Shown here: piece after piece, positions 1-22,449 of the stretch
Position numbering within the stretch: position 1 is the first letter of the stretch
Layout: each line of letters begins with the position of its first letter
Virus record (IMG/VR): IMGVR_UViG_3300001352_002199
Coordinates: 1 to 59,474 of that record
Direction: 5' to 3' (one strand)
From: a virus
Taxonomy: Duplodnaviria; Caudoviricetes
Length of the DNA: 59,474 bases
The notes under the pieces: generated by a model
Databases searched by the model: none
Seen by the model: only the letters and a program-made list of their open reading frames with translations
Told to the model about the DNA's origin: nothing
Translations under genes and position numbers: made by a program

Positions 1-904
1 AATTTACACTTGGAAACCAATTTAATTCGTTTTGAATTTTAGTATTATCAATTGCATAACGCCAATCGTGACCTAATCTATCTTTTACGAATTCTATTTG
101 ATCTTCATCTTTATCTAGTAGTTTTAGAATAGTTTTAACAATATCTATATTGCGTACTTCATTTTTGCCACCGATATTGTAAACTTGACCAATTTTCCCA
201 CCATGTAATACTGCATCGATACCAGAGCAATGATCTGAAACATGAATCCAGTCACGAATATTTCTACCATCACCATAAACAGGAAGTTTTTTGCCTGCCT
301 TAGCATTTTTAATCATTAATGGAATTAATTTTTCTTCGTGTTGATTTGGTCCGTAATTGTTTGAACAGCGAGTAATTAAAATAGGGTAATCGAAAGTCTC
401 ATAAAAACTGCGACATAATAAATCTGCACTCGCCTTGCTTGCTGAATAAGGGCTATTTGCTTGCAATGGAGTGTTTTCGGTAAAAGCATCATCTTCTTCA
501 CTTAAACTGCCATATACCTCGTCTGTGGACACTTGAAGGTATCTCTCGATACTAGAGCAATCGTGAAGCAAACTTAATAAAGAATGTGTTCCATTTATAT
601 TGGTTTTAATGAAGGGCGTTGAATTATTTATACTATTATCAACATGACTTTCAGCTGCGAAATTAACAATATAATTTATGTCATTCTTTTGTATTAAATT
701 ACGAATACTATCTGTATCATTAATATCACAAATTGATAAACTGTATCTGCCCGATTGATCTATCTCTTCGCTAATATTTTTATAGTTGGCCGCGTATGTT
801 TTCGAATCAACATTGTGAATGTGATAATCATATTTATGGAAAATATGTTTAATAAAGTTAGACCCAATAAAGCCTAATCCACCTGTGACTAATACACTTT
901 TCAT
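1..904 (-). CDS. rfbB: dTDP-glucose 4,6-dehydratase (3' end runs off the window)
   Basis: Not in ORF track; translated by hand: MKSVLVTGGLGFIGSNF...NFAAESHVDNSI...STDEVYG...SPYSASKASAD...RCSNNYGP...DRLGHDWRYA. ATG at 904 overlaps the TGA of the upstream gene (ATGA). Confidence 0.95.
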   Translation of the reverse strand, partial: MKSVLVTGGLGFIGSNFIKHIFHKYDYHIHNVDSKTYAANYKNISEEIDQSGRYSLSICDINDTDSIRNLIQKNDINYIVNFAAESHVDNSINNSTPFIKTNINGTHSLLSLLHDCSSIERYLQVSTDEVYGSLSEEDDAFTENTPLQANSPYSASKASADLLCRSFYETFDYPILITRCSNNYGPNQHEEKLIPLMIKNAKAGKKLPVYGDGRNIRDWIHVSDHCSGIDAVLHGGKIGQVYNIGGKNEVRNIDIVKTILKLLDKDEDQIEFVKDRLGHDWRYAIDNTKIQNELNWFPSVN

Positions 905-1440
905 TCTACATTATAAATTTCCGTATTAGGCTTAGGTATAAATTTTACACTATCATTTACTATATGGTCATCCCATATGATCTTATTTGTTGGCTGCGAG
1001 GCAAAATTGCCCTCTTTTAATTTTATAAAATGAAATGGTTTATAAAACTTTGGGTCTTCTGCACGATCTGACCCATAAGGTTCTAGGGTAAACATATATT
1101 GACCATGATGAAATTCTTTATCTTTGTCAAAAAACTTACAATTCATATATTTGAGGTAATCGTATTCAATAACACTATTAGAATAGCTAAATGAGTCGTA
1201 AGTCATTAAGAATGATAAATCTCTTTGTGGAGCTTCCTTGAGCCAACAAAAGGCATGCAAGGGTAGCTTTGTATATACTGCACCATTTTCAATCATAGCT
1301 ACAAATGTCATAGCTTGATTTTTAATTGTATGAACGCCGAAAATTACACAATTTAAATGATAGGGTATATCTTCAGAGTTGGAGACGAATTCTCTCCTTA
1401 AAAAACATTTTATAGCTGGTGTATTATTGCAAAGCTCCAC
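901..1440 (-). CDS. conserved phage hypothetical protein
   Basis: 179 aa ORF; ENGAVYTKLPLHAFCW and GNFASQPTNKIIW resemble a protein common in marine phages; preceded by GTGTA-N9 motif. Confidence 0.7.
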   Translation of the reverse strand: MELCNNTPAIKCFLRREFVSNSEDIPYHLNCVIFGVHTIKNQAMTFVAMIENGAVYTKLPLHAFCWLKEAPQRDLSFLMTYDSFSYSNSVIEYDYLKYMNCKFFDKDKEFHHGQYMFTLEPYGSDRAEDPKFYKPFHFIKLKEGNFASQPTNKIIWDDHIVNDSVKFIPKPNTEIYNVE

Positions 1441-1454
1441 GCATTATATTACAC

Positions 1455-2327
1455 TCAAATCACATATTTAGATAATGAATCTTTTAATGCTTCTTGAGCA
1501 GTTCTAATCGAAATATACTGTTCAATTTTTGATGTATCTAAAACACAATTTGAACGAGGAGCAGTAACTTCTTGCATGAAATTATCTAGCTTACTAAAGA
1601 ACTTAAACTCTTTATTTATCTTTAAATGCTCTTGCATTAATTCAACTACTTCTTTAGTAGTAACACTACCTTTATTTGTTATATTGTAGATGCCAAATGG
1701 GACATTTTGCTCGATTAAATCAATAGTATATTTTGCAAAATCAGTGCGATGAGAAAGAGAATTGCGCACATCTAATAATTGATCATAAGTCAATAATTTA
1801 GTTAAATAATTGCGAGGAGAAGCGAATTCATCAAATGGTATACGCAATCTAAAAATATAACTATTTGGCGCATTTTGCTTCACAATTTTTTCTGCAAGTG
1901 CTTTTGTGCCACTATAAAAACTACCATTTTGAAAATCAAAATTAGGGGCATCTTCTTCGGTGAAATCTTTAGAGTATCCGCCATAAATACAACCAGAAGA
2001 TATATGGGTGTATAAATAACCTTTATTTGCGCAAAGTTGCGAAAGCATTGCGGGAAATATTACATTGCCTTCAACTGTATCTGCTTTATTTAGTTCACAA
2101 GCATCCACATTTGGTTTACCAATATATCCCGCGCAATTAATTATAGAAACATTGTGGTGTGCAACTGTTTTTTTATAAGCATTATTTGATAGCCAATTAT
2201 CAAAAATTTTCATATTTGTATAATCAACTTTAGAACGACTGAGAGCCCAATAAGGTAAATCGCGTGACGTTAATTCTTTCATTATAGCTTGTGCTATATA
2301 TCCGTTTTTTCCTAGTATTATGTACAT
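1455..2327 (-). CDS. NDP-4-keto-6-deoxyglucose 3,5-epimerase/4-reductase (RmlD-like / NRS-ER type; NDP-rhamnose synthesis)
   Basis: GxxGxxA Rossmann start, NCAGYIGKPNVDACE, HISSGCIY, FYSGTK (YxxxK), LRIP. Confidence 0.85.
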   Translation of the reverse strand: MYIILGKNGYIAQAIMKELTSRDLPYWALSRSKVDYTNMKIFDNWLSNNAYKKTVAHHNVSIINCAGYIGKPNVDACELNKADTVEGNVIFPAMLSQLCANKGYLYTHISSGCIYGGYSKDFTEEDAPNFDFQNGSFYSGTKALAEKIVKQNAPNSYIFRLRIPFDEFASPRNYLTKLLTYDQLLDVRNSLSHRTDFAKYTIDLIEQNVPFGIYNITNKGSVTTKEVVELMQEHLKINKEFKFFSKLDNFMQEVTAPRSNCVLDTSKIEQYISIRTAQEALKDSLSKYVI

Positions 2328-2335
2328 AAAATATT

Positions 2336-3049
2336 TTAAGCGTAGTGATGATTGCCGTATGAACCCCTTTGTTCAAATTTATCTCTTAGGTTTGGTTTGA
2401 TTTGAGGTATTACTTCATGTTTTAATAAACATAAATTCCATGTAGGTTGATCTCTAAAGGTAATGTCTGATTGAGTGTAAATTTCCCAAAAATTTGTAGT
2501 GACTTTTTTAACTAAGTCATTGGGAGTATAGCCAAAAATTGTGTTTTCAAAATATTGTTTGGCTGAAAGAGAAATTTCTGGAAATTCTTTTTTAAAAAAT
2601 AAAAGTGTTTTCGAGATGCTGTCTTTAGAATCTTTGCGACCCCAAATTATTAATTGGCATTCACGCTTAACTCCTTTATTGTGGCAAGTGGGATGTTTGT
2701 ATTGAAGAAAGGGATAAGGTTTAGATATAAAAGTATTTGATATAGATACCCAGTCAACATTACATTTTGGGTTCAAATGAACATCGCAATAATATATACA
2801 ATCATAATCTACACCCATAGAATCTAATAATTCCCAGCCCATAAATTTAGCATATCGAGACTTTCTTACATTGCAATTCAAGTTAGATATATTGGGATTA
2901 TTGGAAATATTGTGCACATCCCAATCTGTGTCGAAATCTTTTTGATCTCTGTCGCTAAATAAAAAGTAATCACAACCATCAACCCGTTGAAATCTAGCGG
3001 GATTGTTTCCACGTTTACCAAAAAGAGATGTAATAAATGCTATTTTCAT
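2336..3049 (-). CDS. DUF616 (TOD1/MUCI70)-like glycosyltransferase
   Basis: TSLFG, FSD, SRYAK, YCD, KHP, RDQ motifs typical of DUF616. Confidence 0.7.
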   Translation of the reverse strand: MKIAFITSLFGKRGNNPARFQRVDGCDYFLFSDRDQKDFDTDWDVHNISNNPNISNLNCNVRKSRYAKFMGWELLDSMGVDYDCIYYCDVHLNPKCNVDWVSISNTFISKPYPFLQYKHPTCHNKGVKRECQLIIWGRKDSKDSISKTLLFFKKEFPEISLSAKQYFENTIFGYTPNDLVKKVTTNFWEIYTQSDITFRDQPTWNLCLLKHEVIPQIKPNLRDKFEQRGSYGNHHYA

Positions 3050-3051
3050 AT

Positions 3052-3630
3052 TTATTCTCCAAATTTATACCCGAAATACTCAATGTCTTTTGCATATTGT
3101 TCCGCAACGATTGCGCGAGTTTCGTCATCGTAGTATTCGGTGTAGTGTTTGTGTTTAGTGGTGTTTTCGTGTGAAAGTTCTTGTCTTGGAATTTCAATTA
3201 TATCACAAACCGTTTCAAAGTCTTCTTGTAAATTTTCAAATCGACCTATAAAATCTATATGTTTATCTATAAATTCAACTTGCTTGTTGACATGTCTTAT
3301 CTGCCAATTTTTTGGAGTTTTTAAGAATTCTAAAAAACTAATGTTTTTAAATTGCGGACCCCAATTATACTCACTTGCTACTTTGTCGAATGGGTTTCGC
3401 ACAAATGTAAAAGAAAAATATTTTTCTCTGAATGTTATGTCAAATTCTTCATGAAATGCATGACCTTTAATGCCAGAATCTAGATGATATTGATTTTGTA
3501 TATTTTGCGGAAGAAGCGATAATCTTTCGGGCCTTTTAATACCCTCAAGATTTAAGAGATGCTTCTCTATAGATGTTCCCGCGCATTTTGGAACATGAAT
3601 AAAGATGTATTTATAATTATGACTAATCAT
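3052..3630 (-). CDS. sulfotransferase family 2 protein
   Basis: 5'-PSB FIHVPKCAGTS, 3'-PB FVRNPFDKVAS, GRFENLQEDF, C-terminal DIEYFGY. Confidence 0.9.
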   Translation of the reverse strand: MISHNYKYIFIHVPKCAGTSIEKHLLNLEGIKRPERLSLLPQNIQNQYHLDSGIKGHAFHEEFDITFREKYFSFTFVRNPFDKVASEYNWGPQFKNISFLEFLKTPKNWQIRHVNKQVEFIDKHIDFIGRFENLQEDFETVCDIIEIPRQELSHENTTKHKHYTEYYDDETRAIVAEQYAKDIEYFGYKFGE

Positions 3631-4091: not shown

Positions 4092-4872
<781 letters not shown>

Positions 4873-4918
4873 TATTCCAGCTTTTTTCATGTTTAAAATT
4901 GAAGAGGGATGCATATTT

Positions 4919-5476
4919 TTACTCTCCTATAGTTTGCGTTTCAGCGCACCATAATTTCATAGTGAAGCCTTTTTCTTGTAATTTTTTGACTAAATTATTA
5001 TGAAATTGTGTGCTAATATTTTTTAATTTACCCAAATGCCACTCTCCATATAGTGTGTTTATATAACCGTCAAACAAACCATCCTCTAGCATCTTGGGTA
5101 ATATATCATACTCTGACCCTTCGATGTCCATCTTGAGGATAATATAATCGTCTTTATTGAAGTTTTTAATAATGAAATCAGAAATATCAATACAATTCAC
5201 TTTAATTTTCTTAGAGTTAAACATTCCAGTAGTTTTATCCGATCTAAGTGTACTACTTAAATTTGCTCCAACACGAAAACTCGACTCGCCATAAAATGTA
5301 GAAACAGCATAATCGTAAATTTTAAAATCAGGGAATTTGGATTTATACTCTTCCACCATGCTAGGATTGCATTCAAAGCTATGTATTTCGTAATCTTTAG
5401 AATCAATAAATGATTTCAAAAATAAATCTACAGAACAACCATTATTGGCGCCGAGATCTATAAATATTTTTTTCAT
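4919..5476 (-). CDS. FkbM family SAM-dependent methyltransferase
   Basis: FIDLGANNG, FECNP, LKMDIEGSEY, EWH. Confidence 0.9.
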   Translation of the reverse strand: MKKIFIDLGANNGCSVDLFLKSFIDSKDYEIHSFECNPSMVEEYKSKFPDFKIYDYAVSTFYGESSFRVGANLSSTLRSDKTTGMFNSKKIKVNCIDISDFIIKNFNKDDYIILKMDIEGSEYDILPKMLEDGLFDGYINTLYGEWHLGKLKNISTQFHNNLVKKLQEKGFTMKLWCAETQTIGE

Positions 5477-5485: not shown

Positions 5486-6220
5486 TTATTTATGATAAAT
5501 ATAAAAACTTTCATCTTTAAAAGCATACCTCTTAAAAGGAGAAAAGATAGAACTATCTATTGGTATATTTTTAGTTTTAAGCATGATATTGAGCAGTAGA
5601 TTGTTGCAGTTTATTTTGGGACTCGAGCTGGAGACATCTTCCATTAAGTACACGTACTCCTTTAGGAAACTATGTATTAGTTCGATATAACCACCCCATA
5701 CTCCAGCATTTAATGGAGTTGTAGGGAGTTTTATGTATGAATTAATATCTAAATTAGAGGATGACTTAAGGGTTTGTAATTGAGTTCTATAGTGGTTATT
5801 AAAGAAATTAACCTCACTCGATGTTTCTTCGCAAATTTGAATTGTTTCTTTATCCATTTTTTGAATTGGGTTTTTTCGAATAAAAACATCACTAGCATCA
5901 GAAAACAAAATATGAGTAAAGTTTTTCGATAAATGAAAATTATCTAAATAGATTTTAAATCTATAATCATTATTTGATAAATTGGTGTTATTAGGAGAAA
6001 TGCGAACAAAATGAATGTTTCTATTGGATTTGGTAATATTACCTTCGATGTGATTCGATACACTGCCGTCGTGAAAAATAAAAAGATCGATGTCATTTTG
6101 AATACAACCAATCATTAAAGGGTAAAAAACACACTCAAAATTAGCTGGAAAACTAAAATTTCTCTGCGGGTCTAAACCGCAAGAAAGATATGTTGTAAAT
6201 ATACAAAGTTTATTGTTCAT
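5486..6220 (-). CDS. putative glycosyltransferase (GT-A-like)
   Basis: DPQR, YRF, FSDASDV (DxxD), LNAGVWGG, terminal YIYHK. Confidence 0.55.
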   Translation of the reverse strand: MNNKLCIFTTYLSCGLDPQRNFSFPANFECVFYPLMIGCIQNDIDLFIFHDGSVSNHIEGNITKSNRNIHFVRISPNNTNLSNNDYRFKIYLDNFHLSKNFTHILFSDASDVFIRKNPIQKMDKETIQICEETSSEVNFFNNHYRTQLQTLKSSSNLDINSYIKLPTTPLNAGVWGGYIELIHSFLKEYVYLMEDVSSSSPKINCNNLLLNIMLKTKNIPIDSSIFSPFKRYAFKDESFYIYHK

Positions 6221-6228: not shown

Positions 6229-6783
6229 TTATCTAATATGTAGGAATTTAATTGTTTTATTGCCATAATGTTTATAAATTGAGTTGATTATAGTGCTTTC
6301 ATTAAGTTTTGAGTATTTACTTGACTCCTTATACAAAAAAACAATGTCATCATACTTGATTGAGGTGTTTTTGAAGTTTTTAATTCTTTGTTCGTATCGT
6401 TGACGAAATTTATGAAAATTATTTCTAATATAGAATTCATCATCATTACGACCTTCAGAAAAGAGATGTGAGTGCCCTCCTCCTTCGTGGTTAAAGACTA
6501 TGCCTGCGTCATTTGTTATAGCGGTACCTCCAGGGCCCGCATTTGACCTATTGCCTGAAGCATTGCCCCATGCACAAACTCGCAAGCCTTTGAAGAAAGT
6601 TTCAAAATTATGCTCTAATAAATCTTCGACTGCAGAAGGAGGAGAAATGCAAAGATCAAAAGGGTGTGTTCGGTACCCATTAGATCTGCCTGTTTTATAT
6701 TGATTTTTGAGATTGATTCTAGGATCGCAGTTCCAACCTAATGAAATCCAATTTAAATGAGGGTAAATCTTTTCTGTGGTCAT
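6229..6783 (-). CDS. DUF1796 putative papain-like cysteine peptidase
   Basis: ISLGWNC, THPFDL, FNHE, RYEQRIKNF. Confidence 0.8.
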   Translation of the reverse strand: MTTEKIYPHLNWISLGWNCDPRINLKNQYKTGRSNGYRTHPFDLCISPPSAVEDLLEHNFETFFKGLRVCAWGNASGNRSNAGPGGTAITNDAGIVFNHEGGGHSHLFSEGRNDDEFYIRNNFHKFRQRYEQRIKNFKNTSIKYDDIVFLYKESSKYSKLNESTIINSIYKHYGNKTIKFLHIR

Positions 6784-6801: not shown

Positions 6802-7380
6802 TTAATATCCAACATGATAACATATTTCGTCAGTTATGGTATAATTATAACCTTGATTGATTAAGTTTTTAACAAATTCAAAATCCTCGCCACCCTCATT
6901 TTTAGGAAATAAAATTGGCTCTTTGGGAGTTTTAAAGGAAAAGGAAATGCCTACATTACCAAAACGAATTTGATTGTAGTTTGGTCGAGGTATAATTGTG
7001 TTATTTTTAGTACAATGCATTCGAAAAATGACAAGGTCAAATTGAGAATACTTAGATAAAAGTAAATCGACATAATTAGGGGTTATAGTGTCATCGTCAT
7101 CTAAAAAAGACGTCCAAGTTGTGTCGACATTTTGAAGGCCAATATTGCGTACAAGACCAGCTTCATTGTGAGGATACGAAGAGTCTGTGATTCTTCCTAA
7201 TTTTTCTGTTTGCAAAGTTGTGATCTTTTTACTTTGAAAATCTTCTGTGGGGTTTACTCCATCATATACAATGATCGATTTCCAGTTTGGGTTTGTTTGT
7301 GTGTGTAAAGAAGCTATGCTTCTACTTAATGTCGGGCGACCAATGCTAGGAATAATAAAAGTTGTACTCACTGCTGTCAT
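6802..7380 (-). CDS. glycosyltransferase family 2
   Basis: FIIPSIGR, VYDG, RNIGL, FLDDDD, GEDF. Confidence 0.88.
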   Translation of the reverse strand: MTAVSTTFIIPSIGRPTLSRSIASLHTQTNPNWKSIIVYDGVNPTEDFQSKKITTLQTEKLGRITDSSYPHNEAGLVRNIGLQNVDTTWTSFLDDDDTITPNYVDLLLSKYSQFDLVIFRMHCTKNNTIIPRPNYNQIRFGNVGISFSFKTPKEPILFPKNEGGEDFEFVKNLINQGYNYTITDEICYHVGY

Positions 7381-7733
7381 GAACGCTCGTAATCGTCTTC
7401 AATTCTAACTATATCATCTTCTCCAAAATAAGTGCCTGTTTGAACTTCTATTAAAATCATATCTTCTGAATCGCTAGGGTTAGCCATTCGATGTTTATCT
7501 TCAAAACCAATTAATACAGTTTCTCCAACTTCATAATCTGTATCAATATCATTTAATGTAACACGAGCGACTCCTTGCACAACAGTCCATGCTTCTTGTC
7601 GATGATGGTGATATTGATAACTTAGCCTTTGTTGGGGCTTAACAACAATACGTTTAACTTTACAATACTCTGTGTCGAGTAAAATTTCATAATGTCCCCA
7701 AGGGCGAATTGATTCATCTTCTTGCTTATTCAT
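7377..7733 (-). CDS. mannose-6-phosphate isomerase type II C-terminal cupin domain protein
   Basis: RPWG, KVKRIVVKP, LSYQYHHHRQEAWTVVQG, EVQTGTYFGEDDIVRIEDDY. Confidence 0.92.
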   Translation of the reverse strand: MNKQEDESIRPWGHYEILLDTEYCKVKRIVVKPQQRLSYQYHHHRQEAWTVVQGVARVTLNDIDTDYEVGETVLIGFEDKHRMANPSDSEDMILIEVQTGTYFGEDDIVRIEDDYERS

Positions 7734-10943: not shown

Positions 10944-10948
10944 AAAAA

Positions 10949-11024: not shown

Positions 11025-11039
11025 TTAATTTATAATAAA

Positions 11040-13751: not shown

Positions 13752-13780
13752 AGTGTAAAGTATTTTGACTAAAATGTCAA
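13752..13780 (-). promoter_or_regulatory. sigma70-type promoter
   Basis: TTGACA-N17-TACACT; the -35 is one arm of a TTGAC-N6-GTCAA inverted repeat (13765-13780). Confidence 0.65.
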
Positions 13781-15444: not shown

Positions 15445-16023
15445 TTAGCCAAAGGGAAATCCTATTTTTATAAACATATCGTAATCTTTGTTGTTAAAAT
15501 AAGGCCAATCGAACTTTTTGCAAATATGACGTATCATTTCTAAAAAATATATTGCTGGAGGATGGTATGGTTCAGTCGGTTTTTTTGGGTAGAAGTTTGT
15601 TAGTTCAAAATTTTCAAGGAGTGTGTCAATGGTTATTTCTACTTCTCTAGCTTGGTCCCTGCGCCTCATTCCTTCAAGGGTGACATCTAAATTGTTTACA
15701 TCTAGATAAAAATTAGTAATAGATACGCATTGAGCTTCTGGCAAAACAAGCGAACTTAATGCTTCAGTGTGATAGTCTGGAGAGCCTGTCTCGGTCATGT
15801 TTAGGTTTATAATATAATTACATGATTTTATGTACTCTATTGGGTTATAAGGGCATTTTATTTGTGAATTTAATTTCTTAGCAAGAGGGTAATTTCTTGC
15901 ATCTAAAAAACCAGAGTATCCATCAGAAAAAGAAACCCAATAACATTCTGCGTCAGGTAATAAGTATTTTATGTAAAACGATAATGTTTCAAGGTGACAG
16001 TGTCCTATTGTTGCTATTTTCAT
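15445..16023 (-). CDS. hypothetical protein, possibly WcbI-like polysaccharide biosynthesis protein
   Basis: IGHC near the N-terminus and YHP near the C-terminus resemble the WcbI GNCQ...HP pattern; weak. Confidence 0.45.
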   Translation of the reverse strand: MKIATIGHCHLETLSFYIKYLLPDAECYWVSFSDGYSGFLDARNYPLAKKLNSQIKCPYNPIEYIKSCNYIINLNMTETGSPDYHTEALSSLVLPEAQCVSITNFYLDVNNLDVTLEGMRRRDQAREVEITIDTLLENFELTNFYPKKPTEPYHPPAIYFLEMIRHICKKFDWPYFNNKDYDMFIKIGFPFG

Positions 16024-16706
16024 TGTTGGGAGAATGTCTGATATTGCTTTACTATATCTAGTCTGCTAAATTTTCTGTCGACACCTCTTTCATAACAACC
16101 TCCGTCATAGTGAACTAGAGGTGTGTCATTGAGGAAATCAGCTTCAATATTTGAACAATATTTTTTGTTGTGTTCATCTAATTTTAGAGAAAAGCATTTC
16201 GTATACTTAATTATAATATTCATGTCATTACAACTACCTCTTTTAGGACCCTCCTGGAACGGCTGATTGTTGAATTGTAAAATTGCTTGCTCAATATCCA
16301 TCACCCCTTCCTTGCCAAGATAAACAACTGCTCGTTCTCTGCAAAAATAACTATTTTCTTTTGCAAAATTTAGAATATTTGGTGTGAATCCGTAATTCAT
16401 TACATCATAGTCTGCATATAATGTTGCACCATGTTCACGAACATATTGACAATATGCAAGCAAACGACAATAACAACTGCGATGATATTTCCACATTGAT
16501 GAATGTATTGTTTTATAGAAATTAGCATCAGGATTATCCAAATCAAGTTCATGAAACAATTCGTTACGTTTAGAATATTCTTCGTTTAATACGATTGGAT
16601 TCCATCCATGTTTAATCCATGATTGTTTGTATAGCTCAATTAACTCTTCGCTTTGTTTAGAAAAGTCAAGGTTTGGTATTGATTGGAAATATGATATTGT
16701 GTTCAT
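16020..16706 (-). CDS. putative glycosyltransferase
   Basis: SWIKHGWNPIVL, CYCRLLAY, ADYDVMN (DxD), LVHY; likely start MNTISY. Confidence 0.6.
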   Translation of the reverse strand: MNTISYFQSIPNLDFSKQSEELIELYKQSWIKHGWNPIVLNEEYSKRNELFHELDLDNPDANFYKTIHSSMWKYHRSCYCRLLAYCQYVREHGATLYADYDVMNYGFTPNILNFAKENSYFCRERAVVYLGKEGVMDIEQAILQFNNQPFQEGPKRGSCNDMNIIIKYTKCFSLKLDEHNKKYCSNIEADFLNDTPLVHYDGGCYERGVDRKFSRLDIVKQYQTFSQQ

Positions 16707-16708
16707 TG

Positions 16709-17383
16709 TTATTTTGTTAAATTTGAGCACAACCAAAATTCAGCAAGCATTCTTTTTGAATGATTCGTAAACATAGGTCGTGTTCTCTCAGATTGATTTA
16801 GTGCTCTGTAATCATAATACCTCTCTTTACTTGCATGAAATTCAGTGTATGATTTCAAAGTTTTGATATAATTTGAATTTGCCCACCAAAAATTTCCCGA
16901 ATAATGAGGTAGTGGTTTTTCCTGAAAGTCTATTCCGTCAGTTTCTTTTTTGTTTAAATTTTGCAAACAAATTTCGTGATTATCTATTAAATATTCGTGC
17001 ATACGATTTGTCCATTGCTTTGCAAATTCAGTTGTACACAAAGGATTTGTTTTCCTTCTTTCATCATCATACGATGCACCTTTACTATGTATATAGAGAA
17101 TCTTAGAATTAGGATTATTCTGAGAATGTTTATGCATTAAATCTAAAGTACAACCCTCACCAGTTGCATCTGAAGATTTAGTGAAAATAATTTTTTTGTC
17201 TTGTTTGAATTTATTCGATAATAATTTCAGGAAATCTTCTTTTTTATCTCCAACTAAATTGCAATAAATATTAGATGTTTTTTGGTATAAACCACTGTCA
17301 ATTATTCTATTTAAAGTATTAAGAAACAATTCGTATGAATGATTTACGCAATATAGATGATAGAATATATAAATTTTATTCAT
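16709..17383 (-). CDS. glycan-cluster protein (HSKG...YSGNFWWA family)
   Basis: LYIHSKG, HYSGNFWWANSNYI, AEFW; a family often found among glycosyltransferase clusters. Confidence 0.7.
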   Translation of the reverse strand: MNKIYIFYHLYCVNHSYELFLNTLNRIIDSGLYQKTSNIYCNLVGDKKEDFLKLLSNKFKQDKKIIFTKSSDATGEGCTLDLMHKHSQNNPNSKILYIHSKGASYDDERRKTNPLCTTEFAKQWTNRMHEYLIDNHEICLQNLNKKETDGIDFQEKPLPHYSGNFWWANSNYIKTLKSYTEFHASKERYYDYRALNQSERTRPMFTNHSKRMLAEFWLCSNLTK

Positions 17384-17386: not shown

Positions 17387-18523
17387 TTATTTCCAAATTG
17401 AATTCAATGCATTTTCTAAATCAGAAATTTTGATAAAAGTTTTATCAAATTTAGAATCGTCTGTATATAAAATATGATTGTAATTTAAATACAATCCGTG
17501 CATTACATTATGGTAACCGTTAAAAGGTCGTTGCACACTCCCGCATTCAACACTTGGTACGAATTCTAAAATCTTGACTTTATTTAAATCAGAGTATATC
17601 ATATTGATCAATCCAGTTCCGTGAGGACCGATAATGGTATGAGCATTACTAAAAATCTCGATTTGCTTTGCTATTGATAATGTTTCTTGATTGCCGTTTT
17701 GTCCCGAAAATATTTTTAGTTCACCTTGAATATTATATTTTTGCATCAATGTTTTGATTGTGTTGATCGCAGTTTGTTCATTATTTAAATCTAATACTCT
17801 ACGATTGGTAGTTCCGTGCCTTGTATAAAATATTACATCTTTAGGATTTCTTGATATTTTGCAGTTGGTTATCCATTTTTTAAAATACTGCATAAAGTTA
17901 TTGCCCATTATACATGGATGAACATCAGGAGTAGATACAATTAAGTTTCCTTTGATTTTTATCGTTTCTCCGATGTTTATCCAAACGATACGATTTAATA
18001 ATTTAGGATCAAGTTCTTTAAGCATATTTTGCTTAACTTTACTTTTTAACATTAATATTTTGTAATCTTCAGGAATCACCGAAAGAAACCATGTTAAGTA
18101 TGGTAAATTATCGTGTATAATATGACCATAATTGTTGTGCCACCATGTATGAAATCCTGCATAATCTCCTGTTAATTCTATAATTTTAGAGTTTTGTTTA
18201 ACTTCGTTTGTTTGGTAATCACTCCAAGGTATATTGACCATTGCGCCAAAAAAGTTTTTTCTTTCTGATTGTTCTGTTTTGAATGGATTAACCCAACCAT
18301 TGCCTTTTACGATTTGATGATCATTCCATGCACTTTGCAATACACTAGGTCCTCCGTTCCATATTGCATAATTGGCATTTTTATATAATGTTGTTGTTGT
18401 TGGAAAATCACGGTCAAGACCTATTTTAATACCTGCTTCAAGGTATTGTTGTGTGCATACATTGATAAACTGATTTTGTATATCAGGTTTCGCACTAAAA
18501 ATATTTGGCCATTTTATGCTCAC
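17387..18523 (-). CDS. glycosyltransferase family 61 (DUF563)
   Basis: NYGHIIHDNLP, R...RRVL.NE, QIEIFSNAHTIIGPHGTGLINMIY, LEF. Confidence 0.88.
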   Translation of the reverse strand: MSIKWPNIFSAKPDIQNQFINVCTQQYLEAGIKIGLDRDFPTTTTLYKNANYAIWNGGPSVLQSAWNDHQIVKGNGWVNPFKTEQSERKNFFGAMVNIPWSDYQTNEVKQNSKIIELTGDYAGFHTWWHNNYGHIIHDNLPYLTWFLSVIPEDYKILMLKSKVKQNMLKELDPKLLNRIVWINIGETIKIKGNLIVSTPDVHPCIMGNNFMQYFKKWITNCKISRNPKDVIFYTRHGTTNRRVLDLNNEQTAINTIKTLMQKYNIQGELKIFSGQNGNQETLSIAKQIEIFSNAHTIIGPHGTGLINMIYSDLNKVKILEFVPSVECGSVQRPFNGYHNVMHGLYLNYNHILYTDDSKFDKTFIKISDLENALNSIWK

Positions 18524-18599: not shown

Positions 18600-19142
18600 T
18601 TAATATTCATATCCTTTTAATTGTATTACTTCTTTTTCGTGATTTGCTACAAGATCAATTAATTCTTGGTTGTAAAAATCTTGATAATTTACTCTTCGTT
18701 GAGATCGATTGGATTTTTTGCTTGGCAAAGTAAGTGGAAGATTAATTTTGTTAAGAATTAATTTCATATCTTTATGCATATTTTCTAAAGAACCAATGAA
18801 GTCGGTTACTATAACTCCATCTTGTATATACCAGTGAGATTGAGGTTTAGCACTTTGTCTGCCAAGGTGTCCTTTGAGCCATGATCCAAAAGAATCTGGG
18901 TCCAATGGCCGGTTAAGCCAATTATAATAAGATAAAAATCTATCCCATGGATTTCTCACAAAAGTAAAAACAAAGTAATCGCTAAAATCATAATTAATAA
19001 AATGTTTTTTTATTTCAATTAAATTTCCGTGCTGAAGACTTGTAACATGCTCTCCATGTTTCCATAGTAAGTTTTGACGATAATTAGTCCCTGTTTTGGG
19101 CGGATCTAGGCTTATGAATTTATGTTTATGTGATATAATCAT
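18600..19142 (-). CDS. sulfotransferase family 2 protein
   Basis: PPKTGT, FVRNPWDRFLSYY. Confidence 0.85.
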   Translation of the reverse strand: MIISHKHKFISLDPPKTGTNYRQNLLWKHGEHVTSLQHGNLIEIKKHFINYDFSDYFVFTFVRNPWDRFLSYYNWLNRPLDPDSFGSWLKGHLGRQSAKPQSHWYIQDGVIVTDFIGSLENMHKDMKLILNKINLPLTLPSKKSNRSQRRVNYQDFYNQELIDLVANHEKEVIQLKGYEY

Positions 19143-19782
19143 AATTTTTTAATTGTATTACACTCTTTTCTTTTTGCGCTACGAGATCAATTAGTTGTTG
19201 ATTGTATACGTCATGTATATTGAATGACTGGACGCTTTTATTTCCGTGGCGCAATGTTGGCGTATTTATACCAATTTGGCTACACAAAAAAGAAAACTCG
19301 TCTTTAAGGTTTTCAAAGCTCGCAATATGATCTATCATAATTGCACCCTTTTCATTGCAGTAATACGCGTCTTGCGAGTTATTGTTTAATATGATGTTTT
19401 TTAATACAGTTTGATCGTCTTTATCTTTAAATAATTCGACGCAAAGTTTGCCTTGATTGATTTCTGGTTCACGCCAATTTATAGATTCGTCTCGACGCAT
19501 GCACTTTTCGCCGTAACTCTTAAAATACTTAAGAAAACTAAAATATCTTTGCCATGGATTGCGAACTATAGTGAATTTGTAATACTCATTCCAGTTCCAG
19601 TTGTTTTTTGCAAATTGTTTTTTTGCGCGAATTGCACCGTCATGTTGATAGAATTGCGCATCTACTTTTGGTTCTCCATGAATATCAATAACGCCCAATG
19701 GCAACAAGCTTTCCCGAAGAGACCTGCTTCCAGTTTTAGGTATATCAATCGTAATAAATTTATGTTTATGTGATATTAGCAT
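19126..19782 (-). CDS. sulfotransferase family 2 protein
   Basis: IPKTGSRS, IVRNPWQRYFS, FENLKDEF. Confidence 0.88.
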   Translation of the reverse strand: MLISHKHKFITIDIPKTGSRSLRESLLPLGVIDIHGEPKVDAQFYQHDGAIRAKKQFAKNNWNWNEYYKFTIVRNPWQRYFSFLKYFKSYGEKCMRRDESINWREPEINQGKLCVELFKDKDDQTVLKNIILNNNSQDAYYCNEKGAIMIDHIASFENLKDEFSFLCSQIGINTPTLRHGNKSVQSFNIHDVYNQQLIDLVAQKEKSVIQLKNYDYIT

Positions 19783-20683
19783 TTTTACAATACCTCTCCC
19801 ATAATTTTCTGTCCCAATATGTTCGATCTAAAAATGTTTGGCGAGTCTCTTCTGATAAATAATTAATATCTACTTTGTGTGTGTTGGGGGTTTCGTTTTT
19901 ATCTAAATTTTTCGCAACGACACTTTCCTCAACATCTTTCCTCATAACCCCATAAACTCCATGAAAAACTGAGTCAATTAAATTATCAACTCCACTAATA
20001 TCTTTAATTCTGAAATTTTTTAGGTAAGTATTGTGAGCTAATGTTAAATGATATGGTTCTATTATGACATCTTCACTAAGATCCAATAAACTCCTTAAAA
20101 ACCAACTATCTTCAAGTTCATGAGATTGTATATATTTAAAAAAAGTGGGGGACTTGATTGAACCATGTGTTGGTTCGTGATTACTCGCATCACTACTTAA
20201 GTAATGAAAAAGAGATTGGGCTCTATCAAAAGGATTGCGTAAGACTGTAAAATGCAGTTTATGTTTTAAATTTGACGATTCGCAAATGCGATTTATAGCT
20301 AATCTGGCAGAATTCCAGCCTGGATCCATTGGGTCAATGGAAACAGAAAAGGGTACAATATCTTTGGAAATAATACATTCTATAAAAGTTTCAATATCAA
20401 CATCATCACTACTCATATCTTCTGCAGAGTGCATGCGAAAGTTAGTATTATGTCGATTAATGTCAGTGGGAGTATAATAACAGCAAGTTAATTGCTTTCC
20501 ATCTTCAAGATGTAGTAAGCCCCTACGAATCCGATGAGCTCCCCAACCCTCAATATTTGCACTGCCGTTAAGTAAGTTATATTTCCTGCACAACATCATC
20601 ATCCAACTTAATACATATGTTCCTGCATTTTTAGCAATATGATGAAATACGGGTAAATATTCTGGATCTTTAATTATGCTCAT
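19766..20683 (-). CDS. sulfotransferase-like protein
   Basis: FHHIAKNAGT, LRNPFDRAQSLFHY, terminal D.KLW. Confidence 0.8.
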   Translation of the reverse strand: MSIIKDPEYLPVFHHIAKNAGTYVLSWMMMLCRKYNLLNGSANIEGWGAHRIRRGLLHLEDGKQLTCCYYTPTDINRHNTNFRMHSAEDMSSDDVDIETFIECIISKDIVPFSVSIDPMDPGWNSARLAINRICESSNLKHKLHFTVLRNPFDRAQSLFHYLSSDASNHEPTHGSIKSPTFFKYIQSHELEDSWFLRSLLDLSEDVIIEPYHLTLAHNTYLKNFRIKDISGVDNLIDSVFHGVYGVMRKDVEESVVAKNLDKNETPNTHKVDINYLSEETRQTFLDRTYWDRKLWERYCKNANIT

Positions 20684-21510
20684 TTTTTATGTAAAATGAT
20701 TGTTTGTGGATATTGTTTCTTTGCACTTTCTATACTTGTGTCTGCATCAATAGGTAAAGAAAAGTTGCTAATAATTGGAGAATCTATTAGGTGATTTTGT
20801 GGTTGCAGTGGATCGTGGCAATGCTGGCGACCAAATAATGCACTGTATAATGTATGCATAGCGACATCAAAACTAATAAAACTATTTATTTTATGATTAA
20901 CATTAAATTCAATAAGTTTTTTAGATTCTTGAATGAAAATTTTAAGAAATGGAATATTACGATATAAAGCTATTCCATTTAAGTGACCCGTCCATTCTTC
21001 GTAGATTGGAAGTGTTTGTTTACCTTTGTATGTGCTACCTGCAATTAAGAATTGATTGTTATCGCAATAGTCGATAAGTTTGTCTATCCAGTTATCGGTA
21101 ACCGGTTGAGAATCAACTTCAATTAAAAGATAATCTCTATAATCTAAATCGTAAAAGCGATCAAAAGATTTATAAAATAAATTATTAGGTCCAGTAGAAC
21201 CGCCAAGTTTAGGTGTTGATGAGAGACTTGACTCTCGCATAGCTTGTGGAGTGGTAGCATAAAAATCATCCAATCCAGAAAGATTCAATGTAGATATATA
21301 AACATTATTTAAGTTCTTGAATTTAGTTAAAAAATCTAAACCAGAATATTCTGATAATTTGCCTTTATTGAAAGTTATTTGTAAGTCAATTTTGTATTGA
21401 GAAGAAGCATTGCTTTCAAAGTATTTTCTCAAACATCTCTCTACACTCCCATCGAGATATTCTCTTTGGGTAGACATTAAAAATACTGATAATTTATTTG
21501 TATATTTCAT
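20680..21510 (-). CDS. putative glycosyltransferase-like protein
   Basis: GPNNLF, IEVDS, GS.Y.G, HLNGIALY, FDV, terminal LHKK. Confidence 0.55.
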   Translation of the reverse strand: MKYTNKLSVFLMSTQREYLDGSVERCLRKYFESNASSQYKIDLQITFNKGKLSEYSGLDFLTKFKNLNNVYISTLNLSGLDDFYATTPQAMRESSLSSTPKLGGSTGPNNLFYKSFDRFYDLDYRDYLLIEVDSQPVTDNWIDKLIDYCDNNQFLIAGSTYKGKQTLPIYEEWTGHLNGIALYRNIPFLKIFIQESKKLIEFNVNHKINSFISFDVAMHTLYSALFGRQHCHDPLQPQNHLIDSPIISNFSLPIDADTSIESAKKQYPQTIILHKK

Positions 21511-21764
21511 TTATTTAAACAATTGCAGTTTATATTATGTTTTGAATTATACTTTTTACACTTATTATATAGTCTTTCTTGTAAATAAAGTGGCCAAAAG
21601 AAATAAAAAGCGGCATCATCTTCGTTTCTTAAAGCATTACCCAGTTCTCGAGCATAAAGTTGCTCCCAGTTTCGGTCAACTAGCTTCAGTTTAGTATCTG
21701 AGGGTGTTAGTTGTTTGTGGGGCGTATTGCACCCAACCAATAAAAACAAAAACAAAAACCTCAC
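21507..21764 (-). CDS. small putative lipoprotein
   Basis: MRFLFLFLLVGC lipobox; GTGTA-N9-GTG upstream. Confidence 0.6.
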   Translation of the reverse strand: MRFLFLFLLVGCNTPHKQLTPSDTKLKLVDRNWEQLYARELGNALRNEDDAAFYFFWPLYLQERLYNKCKKYNSKHNINCNCLNK

Positions 21765-21780
21765 ACCATATTATACACTA

Positions 21781-22449
21781 TTAAATTTGATTAATTAATT
21801 CCAATGTTCGAGAATACAAGTGAGGTCGTCGGGAACTACCATGAAAACCAAAAACCTTGTTAATATCTTTATTATATTGATTGTCTTCTTCTAGGGAAAA
21901 TTTAGAAGCTAACTGCTCGGGAGCAAAAGAGAACCCATTGTCGCACAAATAGTTGTAGTGGTCTGTGCAAATAAGCTTATCTTCATTAAAAGAAAAATCT
22001 AAATCTAAATTAGAACAGTATTTCATTAACTTTTTACTTCTTAAACTAAATCCTCCATTGCCTACTCGATTTACCTTGCTCCATGGAGCTTCAGGAAATA
22101 AAGCACCAATATAATCATAATCTAAAAATCTATCACTCCAAAGGTTTGAATTTAAAATAAACCCATCATGTTGAAAAATTAAGCAATATTCAGCATCAAT
22201 ATGCTCATGCAGTCTTGTTAAGACAAATTTACTGTAATCCGCTACAGAGTGTAATTTCGTAGGTATGTATTGAAGTTTTTTATTCTTTGGTAATTTTTGA
22301 ATTTCAGGATAACCCGTAAAAATTTTAATAGAATTAAATTCTATGAATTTCGAGCTATGTTCAGCAATTTTAATTAATAGATTTATTCGATCTAAATTTT
22401 GACTACCATCGGCAGTAATTAGATCTATCGAACTTAGGTTTATGCCCAC
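21781..22449 (-). CDS. DUF5672 glycosyltransferase-like protein
   Basis: FQHDGF, YDYIGA, VGNGGFSLRSKKL, NED, FGFHG. Confidence 0.88.
   Translation of the reverse strand: MGINLSSIDLITADGSQNLDRINLLIKIAEHSSKFIEFNSIKIFTGYPEIQKLPKNKKLQYIPTKLHSVADYSKFVLTRLHEHIDAEYCLIFQHDGFILNSNLWSDRFLDYDYIGALFPEAPWSKVNRVGNGGFSLRSKKLMKYCSNLDLDFSFNEDKLICTDHYNYLCDNGFSFAPEQLASKFSLEEDNQYNKDINKVFGFHGSSRRPHLYSRTLELINQI

Follow-up and report, generated by a model that had tools for sequence, protein, structure and literature searches.

Introduction

The capsid N-glycans of chlorovirus PBCV-1 contain O-methylated rhamnose and are built by viral enzymes that act in the cytoplasm, and to our knowledge these glycans carry no sulfate. 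Among bacteria, loci for sulfated surface polysaccharides include the sulfated EPS clusters of cyanobacteria and the rhizobial NodH/LpsS loci, and cyanomyophages carry clusters of LPS genes. For giant viruses, one account (PMC10117803) describes a UDP-L-rhamnose pathway (R141 and L780) and fibril gene clusters in Mimivirus, a sulfotransferase together with SAT/APS kinase in the clusters of Moumouvirus australiensis and Cotonvirus, and two 'papain-like' genes within the fibril glycosylation clusters. Virion glycosylation by phage glycosyltransferases has been established for mycobacteriophages (Freeman et al. 2023, cited in PMC12619734), and the same text describes 'moraphages', large phages from aquatic habitats whose hosts are predicted to be Bacteroidota and whose core genes include four groups of glycosyltransferases.

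Here we describe a 59,474-nucleotide fragment (hereafter the window) that comes from an uncultured marine phage of large size and in which genes for predicted soluble sugar and sulfate enzymes occupy more than one-third of the length. An earlier note on this DNA had proposed about 20 glycan genes within positions 1-22449, and our count of 21 candidate ORFs, which span 14,334 of the 22,449 bases (64%), confirms this estimate. A third sugar block at positions 48191-56974 lies outside the span described earlier, and the whole record holds 29 candidate sugar ORFs amounting to 39% of its length. We conclude that this phage-borne toolbox of soluble sugar enzymes is real, and that it is sited in replaceable islands of a lineage of large (about 140-210 kb) marine phages.

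Sugar islands in a conserved phage backbone

The window encodes DnaE, DnaB, primase, UvsX, RNR, a sigma factor, and homing endonucleases. The sugar blocks alternate with phage replication genes and are flanked by them on both sides, and the gene order of the window follows that of a collinear viral contig of 139 kb (G001) that has sugar blocks at equivalent sites. The backbone is kept between the two, and most sugar genes have been swapped at the same positions: counterparts with at least 50% identity exist in G001 for 29 of 35 backbone ORFs and for three of 29 sugar ORFs. The interleaved replication genes, the collinearity with G001, and a flat GC content (0.29-0.37) uphold the assignment of this DNA to a phage rather than to a host EPS locus.

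An origin from a cellular EPS locus or through chimeric assembly would fit with the absence of capsid, portal, tail, and terminase genes among the window ORFs in our family searches, and with the placement of relatives in bacterial MAG bins. Yet hundreds of viral contigs share the same backbone, relatives of 200 kb carry a terminase-like gene, and the bins belong to many unrelated phyla, which is the pattern expected of mis-binned phage contigs. Given also the replication genes on both island flanks, a cellular or chimeric origin is extremely improbable. Because the window holds no structural gene, any link to a virion protein would be invisible within it. Among the close relatives, three of 12 bins are flavobacterial and only one of 12 is assigned to Verrucomicrobiales, and so the association with Verrucomicrobiota suggested in the earlier note is unsupported.

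Predicted supply of rhamnose and mannose

Pfam matches were counted when above curated cut-offs, and family models recognized the RmlB, NRS/ER-type enzyme, PMI cupin, GT2, GT61, DUF5672, and FkbM genes that had been proposed. All features below are on the minus strand unless stated otherwise. The gene for an RmlB-type dTDP-glucose 4,6-dehydratase (2..904) runs off the contig end, leaving its C-terminus missing, and the product matches PF16363 (263 bits), TIGR01181 (406.9 bits versus a cut-off of 365.1), and PDB entry 6bi4 (E 4.9e-103), with 93% identity to the G001 copy. The putative NRS/ER-type bifunctional NDP-4-keto-6-deoxyglucose 3,5-epimerase/4-reductase (rhamnose synthase; 1455..2327) matches RmlD_sub_bind (84.8 bits) and falls under the cut-off of the TIGR01214 rmlD model (65.5 bits versus 224). 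Its matches among PDB entries are 4qqr (E 9.8e-37) and 7jid (E 5.7e-19), the latter a solved 'UDP-L-rhamnose synthase', with the RmlD structure 1vl0 reaching only 3.7e-6. Equivalents of Cys115 and Lys183 are retained, as is the YxxxK motif. This protein is far nearer to the solved bifunctional 3,5-epimerase/4-reductases than to RmlD, which agrees with the two-gene route to NDP-rhamnose put forward earlier.

The ORF between the two rhamnose genes (901..1440) was rejected as a glycan gene. It encodes a 'PurM-like' small protein of marine phages (phrog_3704, E 3.6e-35) with 97% identity in G001, and tblastn gave hits in 108 phage records, mostly from cyanophages and pelagiphages with purM/ferredoxin annotations.

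A stand-alone cupin of the mannose-6-phosphate isomerase type (7377..7733; PF01050, 111 bits) aligns with the C-terminal PMI part of TIGR01479. An SDR sugar-nucleotide enzyme is matched in 19 of 20 relatives.

Candidate glycosyltransferases and O-methyltransferases

Two glycosyltransferases belong to established families, namely GT2 (6802..7380; PF00535, 39.9 bits; phrog_14775) and GT61 (17387..18523; PF04577, 53.4 bits). The gene previously labelled DUF616 (2336..3049) has no Pfam match at E<=1; one language-model search (ESM Atlas, score 0.97) places the protein among clusters that are 79-83% PF04765, suggesting a TOD1_MUCI70-like glycosyltransferase. We take PF04765 (TOD1_MUCI70) to be the former DUF616. 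A DUF5672 protein (21781..22449; PF18922, 75.1 bits) lies near a small ORF with a lipoprotein-like N-terminus in its translation (FLLVGC; 21507..21764; no Pfam family).

Among the orphan proteins with DxD motifs noted earlier, one (20680..21510) is predicted to adopt a GT-A fold and would represent a virus-specific glycosyltransferase family that has no Pfam model. Its AF2 model (pLDDT 80.9, pTM 0.83) best matches a GT8 xylosyltransferase and glycogenin in Foldseek (E 1e-6, TM about 0.5), and E131-x-D133 is invariant. A second (16020..16736) has an invariant D109-Y110-D111 motif, and profile comparison with two glycosyltransferase families gave no link. Both have counterparts fused to a sulfotransferase in G001, where a 1107-residue protein joins GT-A, sulfotransferase, and DYD domains in this order; the DYD orphan aligns to residues 850-990.

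The others have no family among Pfam and TIGR/NF models. These are 5486..6220 (nothing at E<=0.1, and none of the 3,200 ORFs in the retrieved loci is related to it), 14372..14815 (one relative, adjoining a sulfotransferase in locus L082), 15445..16023 (recurrent near sulfotransferases, with nine relatives in the fetched loci), and 16709..17383 (four relatives beside sulfotransferases). Two DUF1796 proteins, neither of which was named in the earlier note, are encoded at 4228..4914 (PF08795, 35.2 bits) and 6229..6783 (24.6 bits; cut-off 23). The former has invariant Cys30 and His95 residues in columns shared with the latter, and its model (pLDDT 81.6) best matches an uncharacterised protein, 2g6t (Z 7.1). 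Thus, seven of the 21 candidate ORFs in 1-22449 (five orphans and two DUF1796 proteins) gain no function from family searches.

O-methylation is a reasonable inference from family membership and intact motifs. An FkbM-family methyltransferase (4919..5476) matches PF05050 (44.4 bits) and TIGR01444 (51.3 bits versus a cut-off of 37.7). The third block begins with a 787-residue multidomain protein (48191..50554) that combines a TylF-type O-methyltransferase domain (PF05711, 80.8 bits) and an HtrL_YibB domain (PF09612, 40.9 bits), followed by a CmcI/rhamnosyl O-methyltransferase family protein (50554..51186; PF04989, 31.2 bits, cut-off 23.2) that scores far under the cut-off of NF045824 (30.8 bits versus 400). 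Next come four ORFs that lack a firm family and have no counterpart in G001 (51200..54444, comprising 51200-52213, 52218-53012, 52990-53514, and 53533-54444), the third of which shows weak methyltransferase similarity. The block ends with a tandem pair of PF11397 ('GlcNAc') glycosyltransferases (54444..56974; 158.5 and 206.2 bits; phrog_24687, E 7.4e-127). This pair is found in only three of 20 relatives and the rhamnose gene pair in three to four of 20, and therefore island composition varies between members of the lineage.

Sulfotransferases and the supply of PAPS

Four of the five Sulfotransfer_2 proteins reported earlier score above the Pfam cut-off for PF03567. They are encoded at 3052..3630 (71.3 bits; phrog_3347, E 7.4e-30; motifs PKCAGT and RNPFDKVAS), 13765..14388 on the plus strand (53.2 bits; PKTAGT and RNPWSKALS), 18600..19142 (44.0 bits; PKTGTN and RNPWDRFLS), and 19126..19782 (36.9 bits; PKTGSR and RNPWQRYFS). 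The fifth, a divergent protein with insertions (19766..20683), is below threshold (15.7 bits, E 0.017), and its assignment rests on AKNAGT and RNPFDRAQS motifs and on a match to the profile of the other sulfotransferases (hhalign, 94.3% probability over 44 columns). PF03567 occurs in 15 of 20 long relatives, with 1-11 matches each. Sulfation is likewise a reasonable inference from membership of the family and intact motifs. No gene for PAPS synthesis is present in the window, and sulfation would thus depend on the host, although the search for such genes elsewhere found an APS-kinase-like gene in three of five relatives.

We take Sulfotransfer_2 to be a family of carbohydrate sulfotransferases. 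Sequence does not reveal which acceptors these enzymes use, and the function of phage sulfotransferases is called unclear in a paper on an OM43 phage (PMC10580990). The enzymes might accordingly modify small molecules, lipids, or peptides, their clustering reflecting only the structure of the islands. This proposal seems quite unlikely to us, as it must contend not only with family membership but also with the tight packing of sulfotransferases among glycosyltransferases in both the window and G001, and with the G001 fusion that sets a sulfotransferase domain between GT-A and DYD domains.

Possible targets of the glycan

Among 85 ORFs scanned, a set that excluded RmlB, no sugar ORF has a hydrophobic segment. 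The export search, which covered priming transferases and Wzx, found lipid-carrier priming transferases of either type (Bac_transf and Glycos_transf_4) and the Wzx flippase (Polysacc_synt) each in zero of 20 relatives, with positive controls. Enzymes that lack membrane segments, in a lineage that lacks a priming enzyme and Wzx, favor cytoplasmic assembly on phage proteins, and the evidence leans toward these rather than the host surface as the target.

We give about an even chance to a model wherein the soluble toolbox glycosylates phage proteins in the cytoplasm, in the manner of giant viruses. RmlB and the NRS/ER-type enzyme would convert host NDP-glucose to NDP-L-rhamnose in two steps, and the cupin isomerase would supply mannose. 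At least five glycosyltransferases (GT2, GT61, TOD1_MUCI70-like, the new GT-A family, and two PF11397 proteins), from families that appear mostly eukaryote- or giant-virus-like, would build a glycan that FkbM-, TylF-, and CmcI-type enzymes may O-methylate and that the five Sulfotransfer_2 enzymes may sulfate at different positions by using host PAPS. The chain would be assembled directly on phage proteins, probably those of the virion or fibres. Large proteins in G001 with stretches of 52-53% Ser+Thr, located away from the sugar genes, are possible acceptors. If this model is true, fast island turnover would yield differing virion 'serotypes'.

The phage could instead borrow a lipid carrier, flippase, or exporter from its host, and so the absence of these parts leaves room for a cell-surface product. 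Phage enzymes would then build or decorate lipid-linked or nascent LPS, capsule, or EPS in the cytoplasm for export by the host. The surface of infected cells would be altered, perhaps in such a way that other phages are excluded or progeny are kept from re-adsorbing. Cyanomyophage LPS-gene clusters and O-antigen conversion by prophages are precedents. GT2 and HtrL_YibB, along with Caps_synth and GT25 in G001, resemble components of bacterial surface-polysaccharide loci, and two small lipoprotein-like ORFs lie inside or beside the islands. However, GT61, PF11397, TOD1_MUCI70-like, and Sulfotransfer_2 proteins are eukaryote- or giant-virus-like and untypical of O-antigen systems, and there is little time for the surface to turn over within a lytic cycle. 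Coupled with the lack of a priming transferase and Wzx in 20 relatives and of membrane segments in the sugar enzymes, these points make host-surface remodelling somewhat unlikely. The suggestion that the glycan serves as bait by mimicking the food polysaccharide of the host found no support.

Some glycosyltransferases might decorate modified bases of phage DNA, as happens in T4-like phages among others. The window encodes a dCMP deaminase, a dNMP kinase, a C5 cytosine methylase, and a deoxyribosyltransferase-like protein, and phage glycosyltransferases with a role in DNA hypermodification are cited in the moraphage paper (PMC12619734). Nevertheless, a dCMP/dUMP hydroxymethylase was not seen among the window ORFs, and the islands change too rapidly to serve as a core system of DNA protection. 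The gene set, with its rhamnose synthase, three types of O-methyltransferase, and five sulfotransferases, also goes far beyond the DNA glycans familiar to us, and we regard this explanation as very unlikely.

Comparison with known systems

Moraphages, compared here by description, are likewise large, uncultured phages of aquatic habitats that encode chaperones, antitoxins, homing endonucleases, and several glycosyltransferases, but the words 'sulfotransferase', 'rhamnose', 'DnaE', and 'polymerase III' do not occur in the paper on them (PMC12619734). Single sulfotransferases (phrog_3347) occur in Synechococcus phage ACG-2014f, Ralstonia phage RSL1, Stenotrophomonas phage DLP6, and a Pelagibacter phage, and are at most 33% identical to the phrog_3347 match in the window. 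Earlier phages with glycan genes have one sulfotransferase or two to a few glycosyltransferases, in contrast to the 29 candidate ORFs found here. In the literature searched we came across no phage credited with several sulfotransferases, and a giant-virus-like sugar and sulfate capacity appears to be undescribed for phages.

Bacterial sulfated loci resemble the islands in that PAPS-dependent sulfotransferases adjoin glycosyltransferases and deoxy-sugar synthesis genes, but they have priming transferases and export machinery, and the search for priming transferases and Wzx found none in the window or 20 relatives. Chlorovirus PBCV-1 has a eukaryotic host, and shares with this phage the combination of rhamnose and O-methylation through virus-encoded soluble enzymes and, by description, multidomain glycosyltransferase/methyltransferase proteins such as that at 48191-50554.

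Giant viruses, as described in PMC10117803, differ from this tailed phage of a bacterial host in several respects. Their clusters contain SAT/APS kinase, which is absent from the window, and one sulfotransferase, as opposed to five in the phage and up to 11 matches in its relatives. Unlike the giant-virus enzyme, the phage dehydratase belongs to the bacterial RmlB type. For both the giant-virus clusters and the phage, sulfation is a prediction from the genes. Even so, both encode a 4,6-dehydratase and a bifunctional epimerase/reductase, the phage enzyme matching 7jid, together with soluble glycosyltransferases, methyltransferases, and sulfotransferase in clusters of clade-specific content. Moreover, the 'papain-like' genes of giant viruses lie between a sulfotransferase and a glycosyltransferase, positioned like the two phage DUF1796 genes.

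Sugar genes in a fragment of a large phage genome

The phage origin of the record is secure. The minus strand of this 59,474-base viral contig carries nearly all of its ORFs, GC content is flat when measured in 2-kb windows (0.29-0.37), and a phage replication and nucleotide module occupies 22.9-48.2 kb and 57-59.4 kb. This module includes a DnaE-type polymerase core with a separate exonuclease and a PHP-like ORF, DnaB, a primase, a PD-(D/E)XK nuclease, a UvsX-like recombinase, the small subunit of RNR, a dCMP deaminase, a dNMP kinase, a C5 cytosine methylase, a ClpB-like ATPase and homing endonucleases. Between the sugar blocks lie a gene for a sigma-70-type factor, two more HNH genes, tRNA-Thr and tRNA-Ser. 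None of the 59,474 bases encodes a recognizable capsid, portal, tail or terminase protein, and we therefore conclude that the record is a fragment.

The backbone has some peculiarities of its own. DNA polymerase III alpha is split into a PHP-like ORF (41974-42759, with a weak N-terminal match to phrog_405), an exonuclease (41191-41832) and the polymerase core (38624-41209). Three HNH/NUMOD homing-endonuclease genes lie in 10509-11624 and 47784-48194, two of them flanking tRNA-Thr (10949-11024), and a ribosome hibernation/S30AE-like protein is encoded at 8696-9031 (PF02482, E 9.3e-6; phrog_8990). A set of DNA-precursor and modification genes at 25494-31003 and 33784-34320, coding for the dNMP kinase, the C5 cytosine methylase (445 aa), a Holliday-junction-resolvase-like endonuclease, the dCMP deaminase and a nucleoside 2-deoxyribosyltransferase-like protein, points to possible modification of the phage DNA. 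Lipoprotein-like N-termini occur in two ORFs, one in the conserved core between the islands (9890-10516, plus strand, …GLTSC) and one within the second island (21507-21764, minus strand, …LLVGC); their products are possible surface or exclusion proteins.

The candidate sugar ORFs number 29 and together span 23,112 bases, or 39% of the record; the 21 that fall within 1-22449 make up 64% of the bases there. The glycan families that the earlier note had named by eye were confirmed, most of them above the curated Pfam cut-offs, and the set proved to reach beyond that region into a third block at 48191-56974.

A predicted two-gene rhamnose route

The dTDP-glucose 4,6-dehydratase RmlB, encoded at 2-904, scores 406.9 bits with TIGR01181, above the equivalog cut-off of 365.1 even though its C-terminus is missing, and it matches PDB entry 6bi4 with an E value of 4.9e-103. 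Its partner, encoded at 1455-2327, matches RmlD_sub_bind in Pfam, but reaches only 65.5 bits with the TIGR01214 rmlD model against a cut-off of 224, and its nearest solved structures are a plant 3,5-epimerase/4-reductase (4qqr, E 9.8e-37) and a ‘UDP-L-rhamnose synthase’ (7jid, E 5.7e-19) rather than the RmlD structures 1vl0 (E 3.7e-6) and 4wpg (E 2.9e-5). An identity as RmlD was therefore rejected. When the protein is aligned to 4qqr, SSGCIY falls on ATGCIF (position 115), YLTK on FITK (183) and FYSGTK on FYSKTK, such that the Cys at chain position 115, the Lys at 183 and the SDR YxxxK motif are all kept. We take Cys115 and Lys183 of the plant enzyme to be the epimerase acid/base pair. No ORF of the window matches RmlC (dTDP_sugar_isom), which fits a route of two genes.

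These sequence data support the suggestion, made when the DNA was first read, that an NRS/ER-type bifunctional enzyme (a 3,5-epimerase/4-reductase) completes a two-gene path to rhamnose, with dTDP or UDP as the predicted nucleotide carrier. The NRS/ER protein is also abundant and conserved in metagenomes, since the best 120 of 8,000 scored matches are at least 71% identical to it. The small ORF between the two rhamnose genes (901-1440) could by size and position have been an RmlC-like epimerase, but this candidate was rejected because it encodes a small ‘PurM-like’ protein known from cyanophages and pelagiphages, which is no sugar enzyme. This ORF is 97% identical to the copy in a relative of the window, the 139,273-base viral contig G001, and is more conserved than its neighbors.

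Sulfotransferases and the supply of PAPS

Five Sulfotransfer_2 (PF03567) proteins had been claimed for the window. Four of them, encoded at 3052-3630, 13765-14388 (plus strand), 18600-19142 and 19126-19782, exceed the curated cut-off of 22 bits, the four scores being 71.3, 53.2, 44.0 and 36.9 bits. The fifth (19766-20683) falls below it at 15.7 bits, but carries the characteristic motifs and aligns with a profile of the others at an hhalign probability of 94.3%. Both cofactor motifs are present in all five: an alignment of 13 sulfotransferases from the window and G001 shows no variation in R-N-P and conservation of at least 90% for P14, K15 and S86, and the loop reads PKTGTN in 18600-19142 and PKTGSR in 19126-19782. 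We presume that PKxxG(T/S) is the 5'-phosphosulfate loop and RxPxxRxxS the 3'-phosphate motif, both binding PAPS. The profile built from the 13 sequences matches solved sulfotransferases weakly (5x2b, E 2.8e-5).

In G001, one protein of 1107 residues (L156:8693-12016, equivalent to G001 48693-52016) is a fusion in which an unassigned N-terminal stretch of 250 residues is followed by a GT-A domain, then a sulfotransferase and finally a DYD domain, and the window counterparts of the last three are separate genes at 20680-21510 (GT-A), 19766-20683 (sulfotransferase) and 16020-16736 (DYD). Their union in a single chain ties these three window genes to one process.

Neither the window nor G001 has a match to APS kinase or ATP sulfurylase, and a possible helper of PAPS synthesis, which the first reading had proposed to seek elsewhere in the genome, came to light only in other relatives. 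Three of five encode an APS-kinase-like ORF of 267-276 aa (G002:C1:23770-24021, or L163:961-1764; G004, L164:955-1761; G003:C1:75736-75981) that has no counterpart in the window or G001. Its first 90 residues match APS kinases, with the LGFSxxDR and F-V-C-P motifs kept and the first Asp of DGD replaced, and its C-terminal part resembles a nucleotidyltransferase. This ORF adjoins a pyrophosphatase gene in G002 and lies no more than 1.4 kb from two sulfotransferases in G003. Its product may serve as a PAPS helper, or else as an enzyme of NAD salvage.

Further transferases and the DUF1796 proteins

Several other sugar genes were assigned by Pfam matches above the curated cut-offs, namely FkbM (4919-5476), GT2 (6802-7380), a PMI-type cupin (7377-7733), GT61 (17387-18523) and DUF5672 (21781-22449). 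The gene first labeled ‘DUF616’ (2336-3049) has no Pfam match of its own and clusters in the ESM Atlas with TOD1_MUCI70 (PF04765; 0.97). The third sugar block (48191-56974), which sits between the homing endonuclease gene at 47784-48194 and the UvsX gene, encodes a 787-aa TylF methyltransferase/HtrL_YibB multidomain protein, a protein of the CmcI/rhamnosyl-O-methyltransferase family, a tandem pair of PF11397 glycosyltransferases and four ORFs that lack a firm family. A PF11397 protein also occurs in four jumbo phages of Xanthomonas and Stenotrophomonas.

Two of the orphan proteins with DxD-like motifs fared differently. The protein encoded at 20680-21510 was folded together with nine homologues (pLDDT 80.9, pTM 0.83), and a Foldseek search with the model returned 365 PDB matches at E<=0.001, led by a GT8 xylosyltransferase and glycogenin (E ~1e-6, TM ~0.5). 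E131-x-D133 is invariant in nine sequences, and the model thus predicts a glycosyltransferase of GT-A fold with an acidic metal-binding motif. In the protein encoded at 16020-16736 a D-Y-D is invariant, but profile comparison connects it to neither of two glycosyltransferase families, the Gly_transf_sug-type proteins of G001 and the new GT-A family. Family searches, including comparison with loci of relatives, left four orphans in 1-22449 without any family.

Two proteins that the earlier note left unnamed, encoded at 4228-4914 and 6229-6783, match DUF1796 (PF08795, ‘putative papain-like cysteine peptidase’) with 35.2 and 24.6 bits, respectively, the cut-off being 23 bits. Cys30 and His95 are invariant in these proteins. 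The structural model (pLDDT 81.6) finds nothing at E<=0.001 with Foldseek, and the best 50 VIA-align rows contain no papain. Its best VIA-align match is the uncharacterized structure 2g6t (Z 7.1), followed by SGNH-type esterases and acyltransferases, among them carbohydrate esterases and O-acetyltransferases (Z 5.4-5.7). A word-based homologue search returned six close relatives only, a single-protein query of viral contigs returned no relative, and a local profile detected DUF1796-like ORFs in just three of the loci examined, a distribution that leaves a general linkage between DUF1796 and sulfotransferases unsupported.

Turnover of the sugar islands among relatives

Relatives of the window polymerase are encoded by 578 of 599 candidate stretches in IMG/VR, and the best 80 polymerase loci are 56-95% identical to it and reside on contigs of up to 203 kb. 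Isolated phages offer at best 27.6-32.9% identity over DnaE, and the lineage therefore has no cultured relative. The window is collinear with G001 in reversed orientation, matching its 61-127 kb portion, and the two polymerases are 83% identical. PHROGs and Pfam recognized neither a terminase nor a portal nor a capsid among the G001 ORFs scanned, whereas the 200-kb relatives G003 and G006 carry a terminase-like ORF. This casts doubt on the estimate that G001 is 98% complete, and complete genomes of this lineage probably come closer to 200 kb.

Comparison with G001 separates the backbone from the sugar genes. Among 35 backbone ORFs, 29 have a G001 counterpart at 50% identity or more, three have only paralogue-level matches (28-47%) and three have none; for the 29 sugar ORFs the corresponding counts are three, 12 and 14. 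The three that are kept are RmlB (93%), NRS/ER (88%) and one PF11397 protein (68%). G001 has its islands at matching positions around a shared set of core genes, with different contents. The approximately 35 sugar genes of G001 include transferases of the GT1, GT2, GT8, GT10, GT25, GT31-like, GT61, GT92, GT-D and Caps_synth families, a GDP-mannose dehydratase with an epimerase, a cytidylyltransferase and an inorganic pyrophosphatase, together with nine matches to Sulfotransfer_2 and one to Sulfotransfer_4.

A survey of 20 relatives, each of at least 75 kb, extends this picture. PF03567 is matched in 15 of them, with 1-11 matches each. An SDR sugar-nucleotide enzyme (TIGR01181 at E<=1e-10) is found in 19 of the 20, a true RmlB above the cut-off in three, plus one at 295 bits, an NRS/ER homologue in six and the PF11397 tandem pair in three. 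Given this uneven presence, the trait of the lineage is a variable sugar toolbox and no single fixed glycan. For this member, we infer on good grounds a product that is rhamnose-containing, O-methylated and sulfated.

Host and habitat

Marine metagenome runs from several studies contain pieces of the islands. Among contigs of four DNA runs, such pieces were seen with 0-25 differences in three marine runs that belong to other studies. The many joints between sulfotransferase paralogues in these contigs are indistinguishable from cross-matching, and no conclusion rests on them. No RNA dataset is listed as containing island sequence. Fourteen loci fall in MAG bins, and 12 of them are close relatives of the window (51-67% identity). 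The bins of these 12 are assigned to Flavobacterium or Flavobacteriaceae (three), Verrucomicrobiales (one), Bacteriovoracaceae, Halobacteriovorax, Proteobacteria, Cellvibrionales, Pseudomonadales, Cyanobacteriota, Woesebacteria and an archaeon. With so many unrelated taxa, no host can be named by binning. The proposed link to Verrucomicrobiota, which accounts for a single bin against three flavobacterial ones, finds no support, and neither does the idea that the glycan serves as bait.

Destination of the glycan

A phage might use such genes to remodel the host surface or to decorate its own proteins. A self-contained bacterial surface-polysaccharide locus, Wzx/Wzy- or ABC-dependent, would have a priming transferase and a flippase or exporter. 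The priming transferases Bac_transf (PF02397) and Glycos_transf_4 (PF00953) and the flippase Polysacc_synt (PF01943), the three families that made up the search, are absent from the window and from all 20 relatives, whereas the same searches matched 9, 12 and 13 of 14 control genomes, respectively. No sugar ORF among the 85 ORFs scanned, a set to which RmlB did not belong, contains a hydrophobic segment (Kyte-Doolittle >=1.6 over 19 residues). What the window does hold is the giant-virus type of equipment, in which virus-encoded nucleotide-sugar synthesis is combined with soluble transferases independent of a lipid carrier. The families present are also largely those of eukaryotic and giant-virus glycosylation (GT61, PF11397, TOD1_MUCI70-like and Sulfotransfer_2).

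Possible substrates are visible in G001, where large unannotated proteins contain 60-residue stretches with 45-53% Ser+Thr (L154:2448-6279, L154:9895-12312 and L155:14584-15498), one of them with a Calx-beta domain; from their composition, these proteins are candidate glycan acceptors. Together, the soluble enzymes, the missing priming transferase and flippase, the eukaryote- and giant-virus-like families and the Ser/Thr-rich proteins of G001 lead us to favor phage proteins as the target, although the phage could borrow export machinery from its host and no acceptor is visible in the window itself. Assembly of the glycan would then take place in the cytoplasm and directly on these proteins, much as giant viruses do it.

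Predicted soluble transferases for sugar, methyl and sulfate groups take up 39% of the record and a comparable share in relatives, and they change rapidly from strain to strain, a pattern that suggests strong selection on an exposed surface. Should the product coat virions, it would offer a new view of phage adsorption, of stickiness to marine gels and particles and of phage ‘serotypes’ in the sea, and the genes would supply glyco-engineering with a large set of compact (~190-aa), predicted soluble carbohydrate sulfotransferases and a two-enzyme rhamnose route. The enzymes are accessible in vitro without phage culture.

A more ambitious proposal, which we put forward tentatively and consider rather doubtful as a whole, is that this cosmopolitan lineage of large marine phages possesses an autonomous, giant-virus-like system of cytoplasmic protein glycosylation that coats virions or fibers with sulfated, O-methylated deoxy-sugar glycans, that the replaceable islands are virion ‘serotype’ loci, and that some members bring their own APS-kinase-like PAPS helper. 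If true, it would mark the first case of a bacterial virus producing a sulfated glycan, and polyanionic coats of this kind could determine how virions adhere to marine gels, recognize hosts or escape from grazers and defenses.

Relation to known viral glycosylation systems

Giant viruses are known to make glycans, and a few phages make simple ones; to our knowledge, a sulfated virus-made glycan has been shown for no virus. The system in the window is virus-encoded glycosylation that is unusual in its scale and in its many sulfotransferases. In full-text literature searches, neither a phage with multiple sulfotransferases nor a sulfated phage glycan was found described. Annotated sulfotransferases occur singly in 52 phage records, with no more than 33% identity, and a paper on an OM43 phage describes the function of phage sulfotransferases as unclear (PMC10580990). 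The moraphages, large aquatic phages with predicted Bacteroidota hosts, have four core glycosyltransferase groups according to their description, in which the word ‘sulfotransferase’ is absent (PMC12619734); the window has no TerL or MCP, the markers for placement among them.

The closest precedent is found among giant viruses. According to one report, the fibril-glycosylation clusters of Moumouvirus australiensis and Cotonvirus contain, besides a sulfotransferase and a SAT/APS kinase, a glycosyltransferase flanked by two ‘papain-like’ genes, and its authors state that sulfation awaits validation (PMC10117803). The window presents a neighborhood that resembles these clusters, with a sulfotransferase, a DUF1796 protein, a methyltransferase, an orphan, a second DUF1796 protein and a GT2 in succession, and this parallel, in which papain-like and DUF1796 proteins are likened by description, stands as a lead.
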